This document shows positions 4,326 to 63,830 of a DNA stretch of 64,000 nucleotides, in pieces (the stretch's first letter is position 1; each line of letters opens with the position of its first letter). The stretch is from Candidatus Nomurabacteria bacterium (GTDB lineage: Bacteria; Patescibacteriota; Minisyncoccia; Phycocordibacterales; Phycocordibacteraceae). The notes under the pieces are model-generated. The model did no database searches, was not told the DNA's origin, and worked only from the letters and a program-made list of their open reading frames with translations. The stretch spans positions 17,497 to 81,496 of the forward strand of contig CALRBA010000001.1 in NCBI GenBank assembly GCA_943353835.1. Direction: 5' to 3'. The translations under genes and the position numbers were made by a program.

Positions 4326-4357
4326 CTTGCACCGAGCAAGTCTGCGAGTCGAAGTGT

Positions 4358-4429
4358 GCCCCCGGCCAGAATCGAACTGACATCGTCTCCTCCGCAAGGA
4401 GATGTCCTATCCATTGAACGACGGGGGCA
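4358..4429 (-). tRNA. tRNA, anticodon read as GCG (Arg)
   Basis: Acceptor GCCCCCG/CGGGGGC, D-stem GTTC/GGAC, anticodon stem TCTCC/GGAGA with loop TTGCGGA, T-arm GTCAG-TTCGATT-CTGGC. The GCG anticodon is unusual; confirm with tRNAscan-SE. Confidence 0.6.
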
Positions 4430-4443
4430 GTAGTGAATGTATA

Positions 4444-4917
4444 TCAGAACCCGAGCCACGCCGCCACCAGATCGTTGAAGGTATGGTGATGTTCATCCTC
4501 TTTCACGTAGTATAGGAAGTAATCGTACACTACGTCAACATCAACTCCGTTAAGAGGGATGATTAGATGCGGAGAGAACCAGCTCTCGGTCTTAATAGAG
4601 AGCATGGGAGATAATTCTCCTTTCACATCTTCCAGAACGGAGAAAGATATCATTCGTTCAAACGGATGCATATCGTCTCCTATCATTATGCCTTGTTCCA
4701 CGAGACGGAAGCGATGTACGGGAGGATGTTTAGATGCGTGAAGAGCGAATGCAGTTGTCGCAATAATAATAAGAACGGCGAGAAGATAATTGCCGAAGAG
4801 CACGGACGCGACCGTACCGGACACCGCGATGATACCAAGCGCCCAGTACCAGTCGGTACTCTTCGGATTATGGTCGTACTCTCTCCCTTCCCATTCTAAA
4901 ATAGAAGTGTTGAACAT
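4444..4917 (-). CDS. Hypothetical membrane protein
   Basis: Two predicted TM helices near the N-terminus; no recognisable motif. Confidence 0.4.
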   Translation of the reverse strand: MFNTSILEWEGREYDHNPKSTDWYWALGIIAVSGTVASVLFGNYLLAVLIIIATTAFALHASKHPPVHRFRLVEQGIMIGDDMHPFERMISFSVLEDVKGELSPMLSIKTESWFSPHLIIPLNGVDVDVVYDYFLYYVKEDEHHHTFNDLVAAWLGF

Positions 4918-4936
4918 AGGAAAATGATAACACGGG

Positions 4937-5023
4937 CGGAAGGGGTGAGATTCGAACTCACGGTCCCCGTAAGGAGACTCCGGTTTTCAAGACCGGTGCA
5001 TTAGACCGCTCTGCCACCCTTCC
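4937..5023 (-). tRNA. tRNA-Ser (anticodon TGA)
   Basis: Acceptor GGAAGGG/CCCTTCC, anticodon stem CCGGT/ACCGG with loop CTTGAAA, long variable arm, T-arm GTGAG-TTCGAAT-CTCAC. Confidence 0.75.
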
Positions 5024-5027
5024 ATAA

Positions 5028-5303
5028 CTACTGCGCCGGTGATGAGACGTTCACAGGCGTTTCAGAAACGATGTTTCCGACGTTTTTCGGGCGGAACCAG
5101 ATAAGATACACGATTTCCAGAATGCCGAACGTGTTTATGACCAGAAGCGCTATGAACCAATTCTTCTGGCCGGCACGTGCGGCGGCCCAGAGAGAGTATC
5201 CTTTCAAAACTATTGTCCAAAGTACTAAGACTAGAATAATCGGGACAAAAATACTCATAAATCCCGGCGTGAACGGAGAATAGAATGGAGTGTATGCTTG
5301 CAT
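5028..5303 (-). CDS. Small integral membrane protein (2 TM)
   Basis: Hydrophobic helices only. Confidence 0.35.
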   Translation of the reverse strand: MQAYTPFYSPFTPGFMSIFVPIILVLVLWTIVLKGYSLWAAARAGQKNWFIALLVINTFGILEIVYLIWFRPKNVGNIVSETPVNVSSPAQ

Positions 5304-5333
5304 ATGTGCGAATCATACCACACACTTCTTATT

Positions 5334-5747
5334 ATGCGATATCTAGGCATTGATTATGGGAGTAAAAAAGTCGGCCTCGCCTTATCTGACGAAGCGGGAG
5401 TTATGGGATTCCCGCACGGAATAATAGCGAACACTCCTCGTCTCGCCGATGAGCTCTATGCGCTTATCGCTAAAGAAAATATCGGGGCGGTCGTTATTGG
5501 GGAATCACGCACTCTTAGTGGAGAAGAGAATGCGATAGCCAAGTATGCGAAGGCGCTCGGCTCTCTGATTACTGAACACACGGGAACGCCAGTTTTCTAC
5601 GAATCAGAGGTGTATACGAGTGCGGAGGCGCGCAGGGCTCCAGAAAAAGAAATAAAATCACGCGCCGCGAAGCGGCGCGTGGATGTTGATGCTTCTGCTG
5701 CCGCACTCATCCTTACCAGCTACCTCTCACACGCCAATCATGGATAA
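5334..5747 (+). CDS. ruvX: Putative pre-16S rRNA nuclease / Holliday junction resolvase YqgF (RuvX)
   Basis: MRYLGIDYGSKKVGLALSD signature N-terminus; ~138 aa. Confidence 0.8.
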   Translation: MRYLGIDYGSKKVGLALSDEAGVMGFPHGIIANTPRLADELYALIAKENIGAVVIGESRTLSGEENAIAKYAKALGSLITEHTGTPVFYESEVYTSAEARRAPEKEIKSRAAKRRVDVDASAAALILTSYLSHANHG

Positions 5748-22651: not shown

Positions 22652-25600
22652 ATGGCAGACGGAGAGAAATCAGAAGTGTCCAAGAGAGAGGAGGCGATAC
22701 TTGCCTTTTGGGAGCGCGAGCACATCTTTAAAAAATCACTCGCGAAGAAGTCTCCGAAGGGCGAATTCGTTTTCTACGAAGGTCCGCCGACAGCGAATGC
22801 AGCTCCTGCGCTCCACCACCTCGAGGCACGCGCTTTTAAAGATGCGATTCCGCGATATAAAACAATGCGCGGGTATCGAGTGAATCGTCGAGCGGGATGG
22901 GACACTCACGGTCTCCCAGTGGAATTACAGGTGGAAAAAGAATTGGGGTTTTCTGGGAAAAAAGACATTGAGAAATACGGAGTTGCGGAATTTAATAAAA
23001 AGTGTCGGGAGAGTGTGTTCACTTATATAGATGCATGGGAAAAATTCACTAAGCGCATCGGATACTGGGTAGACGAGAAGAAAGCGTATTTCACTTTTGA
23101 TAGTTCTTATATGGAAGTGCTCTGGCATCTCTTCGCGCAGACAGCGAAGGACGGACGTCTATATAAAGATTATAAAGTTTTACCATGGTGTCCCCGATGC
23201 GGGACCGCACTTTCATCGCACGAGCTCGCACAAGGGTATCAAGACGTCAAAGACCTCACGGTCACGGCGAAATTTGAGCTTCTTGATGAGCCTGGCACGT
23301 TCCTACTCGCGTGGACGACAACTCCGTGGACTCTGCCCGGCAATGTCGCTCTCGCTGTGGGGGCAGATATTGAATACGGGGTGTATGAGGTTGGTGAAGA
23401 GAAAATAATCCTCGCCACAAAGATCGCTACAGAAAAGTCCTCGGGTATCCTCGCTTCGCTCGGCCAGACTATTTCTTCGCGACATTCGCGGCTCATAAAA
23501 GGTAGCGAATTGGTAGGTAAAAAATATAAACCACTCTACGACTTCGCCAAGAATCTTGTGACGGAAAGCGAGAAAGCAAAATTTGATAAGGCGTTTCAGG
23601 TATACTCCGCAGACTTCGTCACGACTGAAGACGGCACCGGCATAGTGCACACGGCTGTGATGTACGGACAGGAAGACTTTGAATTAGGAAATAAAATCGG
23701 ATTGCCGAGGGTACCTCTCGTGAACCCAGAAGGTAAGTTCGTTGAGGGCGTTGGATTCCTCTCTGGACTCTCGGTGGTCGAAGAATCAACATCGGTGGAG
23801 ATCTTAAAAGATCTCCAGACCCGCGGTCTACTTTTCAAAAAGGAGTCGTATACGCATACGTATCCCTTCTGCTGGCGCTGTAAAACTAGACTTATCTACT
23901 ACGCGCGCGATTCGTGGTATATCCGCATGCATGATTTGCGCGGCAAGCTTGTTACGGAGAATAAAAAAATTCACTGGGAACCGGCCTATATCCGTGAGGG
24001 ACGCATGGGGGAATGGCTTGCCAATGCAAAAGATTGGGCGATAAGCCGCGAGCGCTACTGGGGTACTCCGTTGCCGATCTGGAGAAGCTCAGATGGAAGC
24101 GAGCAACTGATAATCGGCTCAATAGACGAACTTAAAAAACACACGAAGAAATCCGGCAACACGTATTTCGTCATGCGTCATGGTATGGCAGAAAGTAATG
24201 CTAATAATTTTTGTAGTACTGACCCAATTAAGCAAAAAGACAATCATTTAACCAAAGAGGGTAAAGAACAAGTATTGAGAAAAATACATGAGTTTAAGCG
24301 CAGTGGCGGAATAGATATTATTGTCGCGTCACCATTTGAGCGGACGACAGAGACGGCTCGCATTGTTTCAGACGTACTTGGGTATGATCCCGGTCAAATT
24401 ATTTTTGATGACAGATTACGTGAGATATCCACTGGTGTGCTTGATGGTCATCCGATAAGCGAATATCGCGCTTTTTATTCAAACCTGCAGGAAAGATTCT
24501 TTAAAGAACCATCTGGTGGGGAAAATCTCACTGAAGTTAGAAGACGTGTTGGTGAGCTACTCTATGATCTAGAGTCTAAACATAAAAATAAAAGAATACT
24601 AATCGTGTCACATGGAGATGCTCTATGGATGTTACAACTCGCTGCATCAGGGAAGCCGTCTACTTCAACAACAGAATTTTCAGAAATGTTATTGGCCGAA
24701 ATTTGTGAACTTGATTTCATATCACTTCCACACAACGAGGACTACGAACTGGATTTGCACAGGCCGTACATTGATGAGGTTGTTCTCGTTTCAAACAAAG
24801 GAACGGAATTGCGGAGAGTGAAGGAAGTTATGGATGTATGGTTTGATTCCGGAGCAATGCCCTTCGCACAGGCGGCGAAAGAACGCGGGCACGAATCACT
24901 TGAAGATTTCTTAAAAAAAGTTGCGTATCCGGCTGATTTCATTTCTGAAGCCATCGACCAGACACGAGGCTGGTTCTATACTCTGCTTGCGGTCGGCACG
25001 CTCGCGGGGCGCGGTGCCGCTTTCAAGAACGCCATCTCACTCGGGCATCTCCTTGATGCCGAAGGCCAGAAAATGAGTAAATCAAAAGGGAATGTCGTTG
25101 ACCCGTGGGTAGAAATTGAAAAGTGGGGCGTTGACGCCCTACGTTTCTGGATGTACAGCGTGACTGGCGCCGGTGATTCAAAGAATTATGACGAGAAAAC
25201 TGTAAAAGAATCCGCAAAAGTTCTGGCATGGCTAGATAACAGCACAAAATTCTACAAAATATTTAATCACGGCGAACTAAAAATAGGAAAGAAGACAGTA
25301 CTTGATAAATGGATATACGCGCGTGTAGAAGAAACAGTCTTGAGCGTTACCGATGCGATGGACAACTACAGTCCGTTTGAAGCGATACGCGCAATCTCCG
25401 TTTTGTGCGAAGATTTGTCGCAATGGTATGTACGACGCGCGAGAGACCGTATGCGCGACGGTGACACCTCTGCATTGGAAACACTGCGTTACACACTGCA
25501 GAACACTGCGCTCCTACTCGCGCCATTTGCGCCTTTTATTGCGGAGGATATATATTGGAAGGTGAGGAGTGAGAACGACCCGGAGAGCGTACATCTCGCA

Positions 25601-26038
25601 GATTGGCCGGAAATTAAAAAACACTGGAGCTTATTTGGCGATTCCGATAAACAACTTGTTGCAGAAATGAAAAAAGTTCGAGTGGTTGCTTCACAGGCAC
25701 TTCAGCTCCGACAAAAGGCGAATATAAAAGTCCGCCAGCCACTCGCGAGCCTAACTGTTCCTGAAAAAATTAGTGCCGAGCTCGCGATTATTCTCGCTGA
25801 AGAGGTGAATGTTAAAAAAATAATTACCGGTAAAGAGCTCTCTCTAGACACGACACTCACACCTGAACTAATCAAAGAAGGCGATGAACGAGAGCTCGCG
25901 CGTGCGGTCGCCGAAGCGAGGAAGACGGAGGGATTTTATCCGAAGGACAAAGTGAACATAGAAATGCATCAGGAAGGTAAGTATTCTGTAACACTTTCAT
26001 CAAGCGTCGTGCGTTTTAATCTTGTCCGTGAGGCATAA
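22652..26038 (+). CDS. ileS: Isoleucyl-tRNA synthetase carrying an inserted histidine-phosphatase (PGAM-superfamily) domain
   Basis: GPPTAN...WDTHGLPVE, editing-domain region, [21 protein letters not shown] and KMSKSKGN all fit IleRS. Residues ~505-700 (nt ~24161-24750) hold MRHGMAESN...RTTETA...SHGDAL, which are histidine phosphatase motifs. Confidence 0.9.
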
Positions 26039-51090: not shown

Positions 51091-51778
51091 GATGACACTG
51101 ATTTTTGACATACGAATATGCATTGGTGAATCGCCCCTGAAAAGGCGATTCATGCCCGCGGCTTGCCGCGGGCGAATTGAAATTAAAGTGTGAATAAAAG
51201 AATGTGCTATGTAGGTCTCCGTACGAGAGACATAAGAGTACACGGTGGATGCCTTGGCCTAGGACGGCTATGAAGGACGCGACTAACCTGCGAAAAGCTT
51301 CGGGGAGGCGGTTTGTAGCCTTTGATCCGGAGATATCCGAATGGGGAAACCCTACAGTTTTGAACTGTAATCTACGAGGTAACTCTTGTATGATGCGAAC
51401 CCTGGGAAGTGAAACATCTCAGTACCAGGAGGAAAAGAGAACAATAGGTGTTGCGTTCCGTCGGCGCGTATGTTCGTGCTGATGGAACGCAACACTCGTG
51501 ATACCCTAAGTAGCGGCGAGCGAAAAGGGAAAAGCCCAAACCGTTTTCTTCGGAAAGCGGGGTTGTAAGATGCGAACGTCCAATTTATTGGAAAAGAGTT
51601 ACAAAATGTCTATATAACAGAAGCTGCTGGGAAGCAGCGCCCCAGAGGGTAATGGCCCCGTATGTGAAATATATGACGACTCTTGTTTGTATTCTTGAGT
51701 AGCTCCAGACACGAATAGCTGGAGTGAATCTGCCGGAACTAACCGGTAAGGCTAAATACGTCCTATGACCGATAGTGA

Positions 51779-51812
<34 letters not shown>

Positions 51813-52382
51813 GAGAGGGGAGTGAAATAGACCTGAAACCGTGTACTTACAAGGGGTCGGAGCGGAATTTATTCCGTGACGGCATGCCTATTGAAGAATG
51901 AGCCGGCGAGTGTATATATCTTGCGTAGCTAAGCCCTTCCGGGGCGGAGCTTAAGGGAAACCGAGCGTGAATAGCGCATTAGTAGGATATATACGACCCG
52001 AAGCCAGATGAGCTTGCCATGAGCAGGGTGAAGTTTGTCGAAAGACAGATGGAGGCCCGAACCCGTAGGTCGTACAACGCCTTGGGATGACTTGTGGTAA
52101 GGAGTGAAAAGCTAATCGAATCTGGGAATAGCTGGTTCTCTCCGAAACAGCTTTTGGGCTGGCGTTGCCATAACGTGCGTGTGGGGGTAGAGCACTGGAA
52201 GGGACCAACAGGGAGAAATCTCGTGGTTCCTATCAAACTCCGAATACCATACGCTCCGGGCAGCAGTTAGAAGGTGGGGGCGAAGCTCCATCGATCGAGA
52301 GGGGAAGAGCCCTGATCGCCAATTAAGGCCCCAAAATCGACGCTCAGTACATCACAAGGAAGTGAGGACTCATTGACAGTGA

Positions 52383-52414
<32 letters not shown>

Positions 52415-53826
52415 GAAAGCGTAACAGCTCACTCATCGAGAGTCCTTGCGCCGAAGATGATCGGGGTTAAGCGTCGTGCCGAAATTGCGGGTGTGCGATT
52501 TTTTAGAAAGTCGTACGCGGTAGGAGAGCGTTGTGTTCGCACTGAAGCTTAAGGGGTAACCCAAGGTGGAGCGTACACAAGTGAGAATGCCGGTACAAGT
52601 AACCACAATGCGGGTGAGAACCCCGCACGTCGAAAGACCAAGGTTTCCTCAGCTATGGTGATCAACTGAGGGTTAGTCGGGCCTAAGGGGATGGCGAGAG
52701 CCGCACCCGATGGACACACGGTTAATATTCCGTGACCGTTTATAAAGGCAATGGAGTGACGAACTGCTGTATGTGTTGCCCATTATTGGATTTGGGTCTG
52801 CGCAGTGAGGGCGTGTATTAGGTAAATCCGGTACACATTACCCCAAGCTGTGACGCAATTTCCTTCTACGGAGGGAGAGAGAGTGCAAAGCGCGGTTTCA
52901 AGAAAATCTTCTACGCATCAACTTTATAGACGACCGTACCGCAAACCGACACAGGTGGTCAGCTCGAGTAGAGTAAGACGAACGAGTAAGATGTCCTCAA
53001 GGAACTCGGCAAACAAGCGGCCGTAAGTTAGCGATAAGGCCTGCCCCTTTCTCGCAAGAGAGAGGGGCCGCAGTGAAAGTTTTCCTGGCAACTGTTTACC
53101 AAAAACACAGCTCCCTGCAAACTCGTAAGAGGAAGTATAGGGGGTGACACCTGACCAATGCCGGAAGGTCAACCATGGTGGGTACACATACTTCGGTGTG
53201 TGTGCTGGACTATGTAAGCCCCGGTGAATGTCGGCGATAACTATAATCGTCCTAAGGTAGCGTAATTCCTTGTCGGGTAAGTTCCGACGTGCACGAATGG
53301 TGTAATGACTGGGAAACTGTCTCGAGGACTCGCTCGGTGAAAATGCACTTCCGGTGAAGATGCCGGATACCTGTAGTTAGACGAAAAGACCCCAGGAGCT
53401 TTACTACAGCTTCGTATTGGCGTTACGTGCTGCATGCGTAGTATAGAGGTCAGACTTTGAAGCATCGGTTTCGGCTGGTGTGGAGTCAACAATGAAATAG
53501 CCTTCTTGCTGTGTGTAACGTCTAACCCCGTTGGGATCCAACGGGGGACCGTGCGTGGCGGGTAGTTTTGGTGGGGCGCTATCCTCCTAAAAAGTAACGG
53601 AGGAGTCTATTAAGGTTCTCTAGGCGCGAATGGAAACCGTGCCGATAGTGTAATGGCATAAGAGAGCTTAACTGCAAGGGGTACATCCCAAGCAGATGCG
53701 AAAGCAGAGCATAGTGAACCGATGGTACGCCTTAGATGCGGCCAGAGATTAACGGATATAAGTTACCCTGGGGATAACAGGCTAGTTCCGCCCAAGCGTC
53801 CTTAGCGACGGCGGAGTTCGGCACCT

Positions 53827-54650
53827 TAACGAATCGGGGTGCCATGCGAGTAATCGCATGAGTCTGGCTGGTACGGTTGGCTCTCGCGCCAACCGCCAGT
53901 GTGCAAAATATGGCTTATAACGGTGAAATCCATTGTAAAATGGACAATACCGTGGGAAGTCTAACGCAATTACAGCGATCAATAATTATCGGAACCATTC
54001 TTGGTGACGGATATTTACGGATCATTTCAGGAAAGAAAAATGCACTTCTCGAAATCAATCACTCTTTCTCACAGAAAGACTATGTTGATTGGAAATACAA
54101 AATGTTAGAAACATTATGTAAGAGTGCGCCAAAGGCTCGCAAAAGTAACGGGACGCGAATAGCGTATCGCTTTACGACGAGACAACATCCTGAAATGACA
54201 AAGCTCTATACACGCTTCTATGGAGAAGGTAAAAAGAGTATTCCAAAGTATTTAGCACTGAATCCGATAATGCTGGCTGTATGGTTCATGGATGATGGAA
54301 GTCGGTGTCGAGCATCTGACGTGTATCTCAATACACAACAGTTTACTCGTACAGATCAAGAGAAGTTGAGAGCGATGCTTTCTTCTCTCGGTATCGAGAG
54401 TAGTCTGAATAAAGATAAAGAATATTCAAGAATTCGAATCAAAAAATCTTCAATATCGAATTTCTTTCAGATAATTTCTCCGTACGTGGTTCCATCAATG
54501 ACATACAAGATTGGGTTATGACCCCGTAGAGACTTGTTCTTAACTGAACAGAGCCGCCAATTGGCGGCTAACACGCCATCTCCTTTTGTGTGATCGAAAG
54601 GATGAAGATATAGTCCGATCCTTCCAGTAATGGAAGAGTAATTTCGACAG
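53827..54650 (+). mobile_element. Group I intron 1 in 23S (inserted between GGCACCT and CGATGTCGGCTC) carrying a LAGLIDADG homing-endonuclease ORF
   Basis: Exon continuity is restored by removing 53827-54650. The intron ends in G, and its P9-like 3' region is similar to that of intron 2. Confidence 0.7.
53877..54521 (+). CDS. LAGLIDADG homing endonuclease (double-motif)
   Basis: [11 protein letters not shown] and [10 protein letters not shown] motifs; start codon uncertain (M at 53877, 53910 or 53940). Confidence 0.8.
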
Positions 54651-54743
54651 CGATGTCGGCTCACCATAGCGCGGGGGTGGAGAAGCTCCCAAGCGTTTGG
54701 CTGTTCGCCAATTAAAATGGTACGCGAGCTGGGTTCAAACCGT

Positions 54744-55082
54744 GCAGAACGTCATAGCAAGGCCTCGCCTTGCTATGGTAGATTGCACGGTTTGAACCCA
54801 CGAGGAATTGTTAGGTGCGTGGAGACGCACTGTGCGAAGACATACTTACGGCGGTCGCGCGCAGGAATGCACGCGAAGAAATCAACTTATATCGGTGAAA
54901 TCCAATCGCGTTGTGTACGCGAGGACAACACCGAGGGAAGAGTGGAGTCAGTGTTCGCTTGGCCGAGATTATTCGGCATAAGTGTTCGCTTCGCTCCCTT
55001 ACCCCTAGAGACTGAATGTTGATCAGCGAGAACCGCTGAAGTTACAGTCCGATCCTCCGAGTAATCGGAGTAAACGTAGATG
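54744..55082 (+). mobile_element. Group I intron 2 in 23S (ORF-less) at the GGGTTCAAACCGT|CGTGAGACAG site (I-CreI-type site region)
   Basis: The internal guide acggtttgaaccc pairs with the 5' exon end. The intron ends in G, and removing it restores the conserved 23S sequence. Confidence 0.6.
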
Positions 55083-55520
55083 CGTGAGACAGGTTGGTCT
55101 CCTATCTACTACAGGCGTTGATTCTTGAGGAGGGTCGTCCCTAGTACGAGAGGACCGGGATGAACTGACCTCTGGTCTACCAGCTGTCCTGCCAAGGGCA
55201 CCGCTGGGTAGCTATGTCGGGTTGCGATAACCGCTGAAAGCATATAAGCGGGAAACGTGCTCCAAGATTAGGAATCGTTATGAGACTCGTGAGAGATTAT
55301 CACGTTGATAGGCTCTAGGTGGAAGTGCCGTAAGGCATGGAGCCGAGGAGTACTAATATGTCCAGTCTCTCGTGCGGAACTCTGTATAGCACTTCATTTT
55401 GTTTTCACTTTGTTTTAAATACCAATGCACGTGCCCTGCGTAGCTTCAGCGAAGCAGGGTATTCGTATACCGACACCGTGCCCTTCGTAGCTTTATGCGA
55501 AGTAGGGCTTCGAGTGTTCG

Positions 55521-55638
55521 GTTCTGGTGGTTTGGCGGGAGGGTCATACCCGTTCTCATTCCGAACACGGCAGTCAAGCCTCCTAGCGGCGATGGTACTC
55601 ATCGTTTCAGATGGGGAGAGTAGCTAACCGCCAGAACC
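55521..55638 (+). rRNA. rrf: 5S ribosomal RNA
   Basis: CCGAACACGGCAGTCAAGCC...GGGAGAGTAGC conserved 5S helices, ~150 nt after 23S. Confidence 0.8.
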
Positions 55639-55697
55639 GAGCATTTGAAGCAAATGCCACGCAGGCATCCTGCGCGGCGTTTTGTTATACTATCGGC

Positions 55698-56462
55698 ATG
55701 AGTTGGGCCGCACGGAGGAGGTTTATTATTCTGCTGATTGTCGGCGCGGTTTTTGTTGCGTTTCTGACGACGGTAGGTATTGCGACTTTTTATAAAGCGC
55801 CGTCGTGTTCTGACGGTAAACAGAATCAGAACGAAACCGGCGTAGATTGCGGGGGAGCGTGCCAATACCTATGTATTGAACAGCAATATCCGCCGACAGT
55901 ATTATTTACAAAAGCGATTAAAAACGGCGAAGGGCGCGTTGACGTAATTGCAAAAGTAGAAAATAAAAACGCAGATGCGGCCGCAAAAAACGTTCGGTAT
56001 AAAATTACACTCTACGGCTCCGACCAGTCTCTTATTCAGGAAATGACCGGAATTCTTGACTTGCCACCAAGTGCGAGCGTTCCTGTATTCGTACCAAACA
56101 TACCGTCTGGTAAACAGACCATAGTAAACGCCTTTCTTGATATAAATCAGTCTTCACTGCAATGGTTTTCTATGTCGTCTAATACCAGCATTGTGCCGAC
56201 TGTCTCTAATGTAAAACAAATTGGAACAACATCGGCACCGCGCATTGAAGCTATTCTCACGAATACAAGCGTTTCTACTCTCACTAACGTGAAGGCGATT
56301 GTTCTGGTGCGTAACGATAAAGGAGACGTTATTGCCACATCATCCACAATTATTCCTACGATACCGGCACAAGGCAGGGCGACCGCCACGTTTACTTGGA
56401 ATAGTGAGTTTCCAGAAGTACCTGCTTCTATAGAAGTTGTGCCGATTGTTCCACTTCTCTAA
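55698..56462 (+). CDS. Membrane-anchored extracytoplasmic hypothetical protein upstream of ftsW/rodA
   Basis: N-terminal TM helix and a CxxxxxxGxDCGGxC motif. Confidence 0.4.
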   Translation: MSWAARRRFIILLIVGAVFVAFLTTVGIATFYKAPSCSDGKQNQNETGVDCGGACQYLCIEQQYPPTVLFTKAIKNGEGRVDVIAKVENKNADAAAKNVRYKITLYGSDQSLIQEMTGILDLPPSASVPVFVPNIPSGKQTIVNAFLDINQSSLQWFSMSSNTSIVPTVSNVKQIGTTSAPRIEAILTNTSVSTLTNVKAIVLVRNDKGDVIATSSTIIPTIPAQGRATATFTWNSEFPEVPASIEVVPIVPLL

Positions 56463-63637: not shown

Positions 63638-63830
63638 GACCATACTGCCACTCGGTTCATGAGTAGGTAGGGGAAGTCTAGAAAATGAACTCGAAGGGGT
63701 TCATTGTGCGTTCTAGCGCTGTTATTTGACAACCCACATACGTGCTAAATGTGAAATGAAAAGCCCCCGCCAACATCTGCGAAGTTGTTGCGGGGGAGTG
63801 TGAATTCTTTTGTTCCGCCTATTCTTAATG

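Follow-up and report, generated by a model that had tools for sequence, protein, structure and literature searches.

The 64,000-nucleotide (nt) stretch of DNA analysed here (the window; contig CALRBA010000001.1, positions 17,497 to 81,496) bears a 23S rRNA gene interrupted twice near its 3' end, and the features of the locus are collected in Table 1. We conclude with high confidence that the 23S gene carries two group I introns, one inserted after Escherichia coli position 2500 (L2500, intron 1) with an intact gene for an I-SceI-type LAGLIDADG homing endonuclease, and one inserted after position 2593 (L2593, intron 2), which is reduced and has no open reading frame (ORF). Two group I introns had been proposed for this gene in an original prediction made from the sequence alone, and this proposal held, with covarying cores, guides that form P10 and a P1 containing a U.G wobble, and G as the last nucleotide of both inserts. 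The Rfam model LSU_rRNA_bacteria matched the gene from 51222 with 2007 bits, and the match broke off at 53890.

Table 1. Coordinates in the window of the 23S rRNA gene, its two introns and their parts
Feature	Coordinates	Strand	Remarks
23S rRNA gene including both introns	51222-55390	+	3' end approximate; 5' end from Rfam
5' exon end GGCACCU (to U2500), P1 5' strand of intron 1	53820-53826	+	pairs GGGUGCC 53837-53843
Intron 1, group I, L2500	53827-54650	+	824 nt, ends G54650; exon restoration, covariation
Intron 1 internal guide AUCG/GGGUGCC	53833-53843	+	reverse complement of ligated exons
Intron 1 P2	53844-49 / 53854-59	+	
Intron 1 P2.1	53864-53899	+	
Intron 1 P3	53910-14 / 54575-79	+	
Intron 1 P4	53920-25 / 53948-53	+	
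Intron 1 P5	53929-33 / 53940-44	+	
Homing-endonuclease gene, 193 amino acids	53940-54521	+	in P6 loop; Pfam LAGLIDADG_2
Intron 1 P6	53954-56 / 54523-25	+	
Intron 1 P6a	53959-61 / 54520-22	+	
Intron 1 P6b	53963-71 / 54509-17	+	
Intron 1 P7	54529-34 / 54612-16	+	
Intron 1 P7.1	54535-50	+	
Intron 1 P7.2	54552-69	+	
Intron 1 P8	54581-86 / 54597-54602	+	
Intron 1 P9	54621-26 / 54631-36	+	
Exon between introns	54651-54743	+	E. coli 2501-2593, 93 nt, gapless against E. coli
Intron 2, group I, L2593 (I-CreI site)	54744-55082	+	339 nt, no ORF, ends G55082; exon restoration, covariation
5'-end hairpin of intron 2, in L1 insertion	54744-54786	+	GCA 54744-46 pairs UGC 54784-86 (minimum free energy fold)
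13-mer ACGGTTTGAACCC, second exon-binding strand	54787-54799	+	complements exon 54731-54743 (E. coli 2581-2593)
13-mer sub-segment ACGG	54787-90	+	
13-mer sub-segment UUUGAACCC	54791-99	+	
Predicted catalytic internal guide UACG/GCGGU	54847-54855	+	reverse complement of CCGU/CGUG with U.G wobble
Intron 2 P2	54855-62 / 54869-76	+	
Intron 2 P3	54882-86 / 55018-22	+	
Intron 2 P4	54892-97 / 54929-34	+	
Intron 2 P5	54901-03 / 54923-25	+	
Intron 2 P5a	54906-10 / 54918-22	+	
Intron 2 P6	54935-37 / 55002-04	+	
P6 extension hairpin of intron 2	54938-55001	+	64 nt; where relatives carry endonuclease genes
Intron 2 P7	55008-13 / 55046-50	+	
Intron 2 P8	55023-28 / 55034-39	+	
Intron 2 P9	55055-60 / 55065-70	+	
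5S rRNA	55523-55636		3' of 23S; Rfam

The two inserts were removed and the remainder was aligned to E. coli rrl with MAFFT. No alignment gap was found at either junction, GGCACCT/CGATGTCGGCTC and GGGTTCAAACCGT/CGTGAGACAG, and the spliced 23S aligned with rrl through to the rrl 3' end, so the insert boundaries given by the original prediction were exact. Site numbers were set via the landmarks A2503 and A2602, the rrl copy used running 3 nt off the standard numbering, which fixed the insertion points after U2500 and after U2593. Both sites lie in the peptidyl-transferase region of 23S domain V, separated by an exon of 93 nt rather than the 90 nt first stated. As seen directly in the sequence, the last nucleotide is T in both 5' exons and, as predicted, G in both inserts. 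Relatives were collected by scanning one genome per GTDB species via the endonuclease, and 80 loci were kept (designated by L-numbers such as L047). The GGCACCU exon end was conserved across all loci, and the anchors stood 73 nt apart both in the window and in almost all loci where the two were found; three loci have an extra insert there.

The helices of intron 1 were drawn by hand and scored on 24 homologues with the ORF removed, the controls being partners slid by 1-3 columns and 500 shuffles. Pairing was found in 93.2% of cells, against 36-41% with slid partners; 34 pairs changed on both sides, and none of the 500 shuffles matched the observed covariation. The internal guide is the reverse complement of GGCACCU/CGAU save for an A-to-G change opposite the splice-site U, GGGUGCC forming P1 with the 5' exon GGCACCU (wobble U53826.G53837) and AUCG forming P10 with the 3' exon CGAU. 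Within the guide motif ATCGGGGTGC, G12 and T14 were each found in at least 90% of the 24 homologues and the other positions were invariant; the motif was also seen, with few substitutions, in a wider set of L2500 loci. Since P7.1 and P7.2 are present, both covarying, intron 1 appears subgroup-IA-like. This assignment agrees with the cyanobacterial L2593 introns, which have P7.1/P7.2 and a short P2 and in which LAGLIDADG genes are known (PMC1995217), and with the tRNA group I introns of Patescibacteria, nearly all of which are described as IA (PMC13011429). A terminal G was found in 56 of 70 L2500 homologues. The other 14 (L015, L016, L019-L022, L032, L035, L043, L050, L054, L056, L058, L065) end in A directly before CGATGTCGG, with the P7 3' strand AGTCC unchanged; they appear to be without a terminal G because the exon sequence fixes the border.

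The protein encoded in intron 1 has the two LAGLIDADG motifs that had been predicted, ILGDGYL and WFMDDGS, and matched Pfam LAGLIDADG_2 (PF03161) over its full length (model positions 1-168 of 168) with 143 bits against a cut-off of 25 (E 1e-41). It matched PF03161 alone, and not PF00961, the family of the LAGLIDADG_1 homodimers with a single motif and about 160 amino acids (aa). Matches in the PDB were to 6x1j and I-SceI (E 1e-15 to 1e-14), with the LGDG and MDDG motifs aligned. Because the LAGLIDADG_2 match is end to end and the PDB matches are to 6x1j and I-SceI, the protein is classed as a predicted monomer of I-SceI type. Kinship with I-CreI or I-CeuI, the families with which a comparison had been suggested, was ruled out by the Pfam family and by these PDB matches. 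I-SceI, from the omega intron of yeast mitochondrial 21S rRNA, and 6x1j share with the window enzyme the LAGLIDADG_2 domain and the two-motif monomeric architecture; the alignment to I-SceI is full-length with the acidic residues aligned (LGDG/LGDA, WFMDDG), and the genes of both enzymes lie in group I introns of domain V of the large-subunit (LSU) rRNA. At 193 aa against 231-237 aa, the window enzyme is the shorter one, and the similarity is remote (E about 1e-14). The omega site of I-SceI lies about 50 nt upstream of L2500, so the target specificities must differ.

The gene and the RNA of intron 1 are interlocked, the ATG lying inside the P5 3' strand and P6a/P6b, which covary, being formed by some 10 codons at the start and some 7 at the end of the gene. 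A total of 2909 homologues of the protein were found. The endonuclease gene was present in all 80 loci of the endonuclease-based scan, and was at L2500 in all 70 with placeable exon anchors. The ratio of nonsynonymous to synonymous substitution rates (dN/dS) was 0.12-0.14 against L002-L004 (three homologues, 81-82% identical), which points to a protein maintained under purifying selection. A frameshift disrupts the gene in the close relative L047, which fits the cycle of gain, decay and loss that homing genes are expected to pass through. The enzyme would cut intron-less 23S at GGCACCT/CGATGTCGG and so drive homing, the predicted cleavage target in the intron-less allele being GGCACCTCGATGTCGGCTC; it may also assist splicing. 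Cleavage at its own insertion site is indirectly supported by the low dN/dS and by the constant L2500 location.

Helices P2-P9 of intron 2 were also drawn by hand, and were scored on 14 ORF-less homologues with the same slid-partner and 500-shuffle controls. Here 92.8% of cells were paired, against 36-43% with slid partners; changes on both sides occurred in 35 of 49 pairs, P7 was invariant, and again no shuffle of the 500 matched the observed covariation. Over the two introns, the covarying helices were P2, P3, P6, P7.1, P7.2, P8 and P9, and P4, P5 and P7 were invariant or nearly so. A covariance model built on the L2593 intron family (R1) scored 172.5 bits on intron 2 and also matched two halves of intron 1 (35.5 and 22.8 bits), with no other match in the 64 kb. 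Nearly all L2593 homologues end in G. Both introns thus have the hallmarks of group I: a guide forming P1 and P10 with a U.G pair, a terminal G, and a P3-P9 core with the P3/P7 pseudoknot, a bulged A and a G-C pair in P7, and A-rich J4/5 and J8/7.

No ORF with a LAGLIDADG motif was found in intron 2 in the ORF list, which together with the insertion after U2593 bears out the prediction of an ORF-less intron at an I-CreI-type site. Intron 2 is a reduced, ORF-less member of the family of intron 1. The stretch where an ORF might once have been, put at about 120 nt in the original prediction, is the P6 loop of 64 nt, which folds as a hairpin. In the window this part of P6 exceeds that of L047 and L002-L005 by several tens of nt (a 47-49-nt gap in one alignment). 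At 54950-54990 an 11-nt direct repeat, AGTGTTCGCTT, flanks a small hairpin, GGCCGAGATTATTCGGC, the whole segment being absent from L047; this may reflect either a small insertion that duplicated its target or a mere lengthening of the helix. The L2593 relatives that do bear an ORF encode I-CreI-like LAGLIDADG proteins of 145-166 aa with a single motif (AGFLDGDGS), as the Cr.LSU intron has I-CreI. Their genes sit between the P6 5' strand and P7, and most stop at the UAG of J6/7. The spread of intron 2 itself would rely on vertical inheritance or on endonucleases from relatives.

Intron 2 has two strands that can bind the 5' exon. In the first, the guide adjoining P2, GCGGU would pair with the 5' exon ACCGU (P1, wobble U2593.G54851) and UACG with the 3' exon CGUG (P10). 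The motif (C/U/A)ACGGCGG stands directly 5' of P2 in L2593 introns having a long insertion in the P1 loop (L1 insertion), and in the compact relatives L042, L060, L070, L025 and L016 the sequence UGGCGGC, 5-8 nt from the splice site, is the sole possible guide. The second is a 13-mer, ACGGUUUGAACCC, in the L1 insertion, which is the unique exact reverse complement of exon 54731-54743 (chance expectation 0.05 per window); the hairpin at the 5' end of the intron extends the 13-mer/exon helix across the 5' splice site. An equivalent anti-exon strand, pairing with exon 2581-2590, was found in 22 of 29 L2593 introns. In these 22 it tracked the A/G2588 polymorphism of the exon (8 A-U, 13 G-C, 1 G.U) within at least two intron sub-lineages. 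At the splice-site end of the helix, C2591 was mismatched in 17 of the 22, G2592-C was kept in 21 and U2593-A was found in 19, and intron positions +1 to +4 were paired with their partners in 19-22 of the 22, with several pair types.

The original prediction had named a guide in intron 2 complementary to the 5' exon. The complementarity is exact and covaries with the exon; the role of catalytic guide did not pass to this strand. If the 13-mer were the true internal guide, P1 would be the long splice-site hairpin with U-A in place of U.G, and several observations speak for this: a perfect complement over 13-14 nt, the topology of a P1 hairpin with the exon and intron +1 to +8 paired to a single downstream strand, the covariation with the exon, and a local fold that is the most stable by far. 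However, the pair at the splice site of group I introns is nearly always U.G, whereas here U2593 stands opposite A in 19 of 22 introns; moreover, the strand 5' of the 13-mer cannot make P10 with CGUG and no P2 follows. The 13-mer equivalent is also absent from 7 of the 29 L2593 introns, nearly all of which keep GGCGG beside P2, and the frequent C2591 mismatch looks as if this end were meant to open. The 13-mer is thus quite improbable as the guide, and since (C/U/A)ACGGCGG precedes P2 and compact relatives have the GGCGG guide alone, the predicted catalytic guide of intron 2 is the GCGG adjoining P2.

With GCGG as the guide, the second exon-binding strand carried in the P1-loop insertion by most candidate phyla radiation (CPR) L2593 introns calls for another role. 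We tentatively suggest, with somewhat more doubt than confidence, that it serves as a switch masking the splice site or as the distal part of a guide made of two parts. In the switch version, the helix would hide the splice site until the core folds, and CCGU would then be passed to the guide GCGG. In the two-part version, about 15 nt of rRNA would be recognised, which would also make it easier for introns without an ORF to reverse-splice into intron-less rRNA. In Tetrahymena pre-rRNA, the 5' exon nucleotides needed for P1 can sit in a competing helix, P(-1). By analogy, a choice between two helices could gate the splicing of intron 2. The Tetrahymena competitor is an exon-exon helix, whereas that of intron 2 pairs the exon with a strand inserted in L1, crosses the splice site and covaries with the exon polymorphism. 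The splice-site helix is not mentioned in the cited sections of the literature, nor are L2593 guide sequences in those of PMC11270868.

Some results weigh against two functional group I introns. On intron 1, Rfam Intron_gpI (RF00028) gave 37 bits (E 6e-7) at 54378-54637, covering J8/7-P7-P9, below the gathering score of 50 bits; on intron 2 alone it gave no match at E of 10 or less, and none on the three introns of the relative L060. The search proposed originally thus left both inserts below the gathering score, with a subthreshold hit on intron 1. The covariation gives no test of P4, P5, P7 and P1/P10, as these are invariant. P7.1 and P7.2, present in the L2593 introns of L042, L060 and L072, are absent from intron 2 (AGAGACU-GAAU-GUUGA); they stabilise the guanosine pocket in related introns, and protein-free self-splicing of intron 2 is not assured. 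Finally, nested folding favoured the splice-site helix over guide-paired P1 by about 22 kcal/mol for the window (15 kcal/mol for L003, 6 kcal/mol for L011), so P1 formation in intron 2 needs rearrangement or help. As for Rfam, its silence on intron 2 and on the L060 introns is taken as insufficient sensitivity and not as counter-evidence. The Rfam model is reported to call just 45% of CPR 23S insertions (PMC11270868).

Alternatively, the inserts might not be spliced at all, being either expansion segments or intervening sequences retained in the rRNA, or excised by RNase III without ligation to leave a fragmented 23S. Intervening sequences that fragment the rRNA do occur in bacterial 23S, and some CPR sites are suspected of having them (PMC11270868). 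The 5' border of intron 2 forms a long perfect duplex similar to RNase III substrates, and neither insert was called by Rfam. Yet both sites are universally conserved positions of the peptidyl-transferase centre, whereas the CPR intervening-sequence sites described in PMC11270868 hold short inserts in poorly conserved regions, and both inserts have full covarying cores, U.G guides, P10 and the terminal G. This leaves the unspliced reading scarcely credible.

The absence of P7.1/P7.2 and of an ORF, together with the strong competing helix over the 5' splice site, could also mean that intron 2 is a decaying remnant that needs a cofactor, such as a host factor or the LAGLIDADG protein of intron 1 acting as a maturase, a role such proteins can serve (PMC11270868). 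Against decay, the core helices of intron 2 are held by compensatory changes over many genomes, and if the genome has no other 23S copy, which is the rule in CPR (PMC11270868), the intron has to be spliced efficiently. Decay is therefore unlikely, and the need for a cofactor would still fit two group I introns that splice. For these, the steps expected from group I biology would be as follows. Both introns would be transcribed within the pre-23S rRNA and each would fold to a group I ribozyme core; the exon end in U would pair with the internal guide (P1, U.G wobble), where an external guanosine would cleave; the 5' half of the guide would then align the 3' exon (P10); and the terminal G would be exchanged and the exons ligated, giving an uninterrupted 23S rRNA. 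Splicing, like the endonuclease activity, is deduced here from sequence.

The internal motif ttata(a/t)cggtgaaatcca and the 3' region gtccgatcc...agtaat..., listed in the original prediction as shared, were both present in both introns. The core sequences UAGAGACU and GAAGAUAUAGUCC were compared with R and S elements, and we take them to match the classical R and S elements of group I; part of the sequence common to both introns is then presumably universal group I motif. Over four core blocks (65 nt), the two window introns were 90.8% identical, against a between-site-family mean of 81.4% and within-site-family means of 92.6% and 82.3%. This value also exceeds that of intron 2 against other L2593 introns (84.4%), as would be expected had intron 2 recently derived from intron 1 in this genome, by ectopic transposition or by gene conversion of the cores. 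But the comparison spans only 65 highly constrained nt, and the peripheries are wholly different (the L1 insertion with the anti-exon strand, P2, P2.1, P7.1, P7.2). Intron 2 also has close same-site counterparts elsewhere (L047, L002, L006), and intron pairs of the same genome were barely more alike than those of different genomes (83.5% vs 81.4% in the core blocks). A recent local origin is thus very improbable.

The two introns are one structural family, and their likeness is at the level of the family, not evidence of recent movement in this gene. The past mobility within the rRNA that had been suggested stands in so far as sites were switched in the history of the family; as a local event it is weakly supported. 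Any site switch is old and not local to this genome, because the family is found at many CPR 23S sites and has same-site counterparts in many genomes. R1 gave 147 matches in the 80 loci, spread over many 23S positions and without exception on the rRNA strand, with at least six in the gene of L027. An insert at or beside L2593 was found in 34 of 69 loci, 29 of them at exactly L2593, so that the presence of the L2593 intron varies among relatives.

Some further inserts were observed among the relatives. A third intron of this family lies about 63 nt past 2593, near the sarcin-ricin loop, in L002 (2605-2967) and L047 (3511-4006), the nearest relatives of the window genome; the window itself lacks it. 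In L006 a tRNA-Gly(GCC) (1273-1348) lies within the P6 loop of the L2593 intron (locus 1022-1524), in L020 a tRNA-Ile(GAU) (4864-4939) lies within the L1 insertion of the L2593 intron (4809-5334), and in L021 the L2593 intron holds a tRNA-like sequence (4854-4931) whose anticodon loop is unusual. A different insert class was seen a few nt 5' of L2593 in L007, L023, L033 and L055, between GCGAGCTGGGT[AT] and CGTGAGACAG and starting near TGAGCCCAG. The insert codes for a two-motif LAGLIDADG protein of 229 aa starting MD(H/N)(T/I)VGRLQS in L023 and L033, and is ORF-less in L007 and L055; R1 matches were found in or beside these inserts in L007, L023 and L055, and none in L033.

The host is, by its sequence relationships, a CPR/Patescibacteria bacterium, represented by a metagenome-assembled genome (MAG), and not an organelle, as indicated by the labels of homologues, the 80-locus scan and the synteny downstream. 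Most of the 80 loci were labelled as Patescibacteria lineages, several having other or placeholder labels. Of the 2909 endonuclease homologues, few among the 120 listed were named, and those named were from Parcubacteria, Paceibacterota or unclassified bacteria. The endonuclease sequence is borne, with bacterial neighbours (L10, L7/L12, FtsW, SecD, SecF), by an ENA metagenome contig of 111 kb, and the genes 3' of the 5S gene are syntenic with L047 and L002-L005, Patescibacteria MAGs, at about 70% nucleotide identity. An organelle origin was ruled out by these bacterial neighbouring genes and this synteny.

As for the rest of the window, the 16S gene begins at 63824, past a stretch of about 8 kb with several long ORFs (Rfam and the ORF list), so the rRNA genes are unlinked. 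The listed ORF 55611-56462 covers the final 26 nt of the 5S gene, and its real start is probably further 3'. The 23S gene has two 51-nt insertions relative to E. coli in domain I (window 51222-51800), near positions 228 and 277; both are short and in variable regions, resembling non-intron insertions described for CPR genomes. A tRNA-Arg with the anticodon GCG is found at 4356-4428 (-), in a codon box for which bacteria usually use ACG/ICG. An isoleucyl-tRNA-synthetase-like protein (tRNA-synt_1 and Anticodon_1) is encoded at 22652-26038 (+), with His_Phos_1 at residues 506-688, in the middle of the catalytic domain.

Introns of this kind have been described in CPR 23S genes (PMC11270868, Tsurumaki et al. 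2024). Insertions were reported there in 82% of CPR 23S genes, up to 16 per rRNA gene; they are group I-like, gather in domain V at recurring sites, 2593 among them, and are removed from transcripts (Brown et al. 2015, cited in PMC11270868). The window introns share the host group and the clustering at the peptidyl-transferase centre, and there too versions with and without an ORF are found at one site, the RNA being near-identical outside the ORF. The stress in that account is on single-motif LAGLIDADG_1 homodimers, whereas the window enzyme is of the two-motif LAGLIDADG_2 monomer type. Site 2500 is not named in the sections of its text cited here, and may be one of 23IS9-11. Intron 2 shares its site, short P5 and short P2 with the L2593 introns of Synechococcus C9/C1 and Thermosynechococcus and with Cr.LSU, which contains I-CreI (PMC1995217); the L2593 introns of L042, L060 and L072 share P7.1/P7.2 with the cyanobacterial ones described there. 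In contrast to the cyanobacterial and chloroplast introns, intron 2 of the window is ORF-less, has lost P7.1/P7.2 and has an L1 insertion of about 100 nt with the anti-exon strand.

The occurrence of rRNA group I introns with LAGLIDADG genes in Patescibacteria is thus already well documented, and the window for the most part bears it out. Such 23S genes are cut short by standard rRNA and Rfam annotation, and base-level structures and guide sequences are now given for the L2500 and L2593 intron families. The compact 193-aa I-SceI-type enzyme with a new predicted 23S target could interest meganuclease engineers. Only the covarying helix that L2593 introns form across their 5' splice site may be new, and it may bear on how splicing is controlled or targeted in group I introns.

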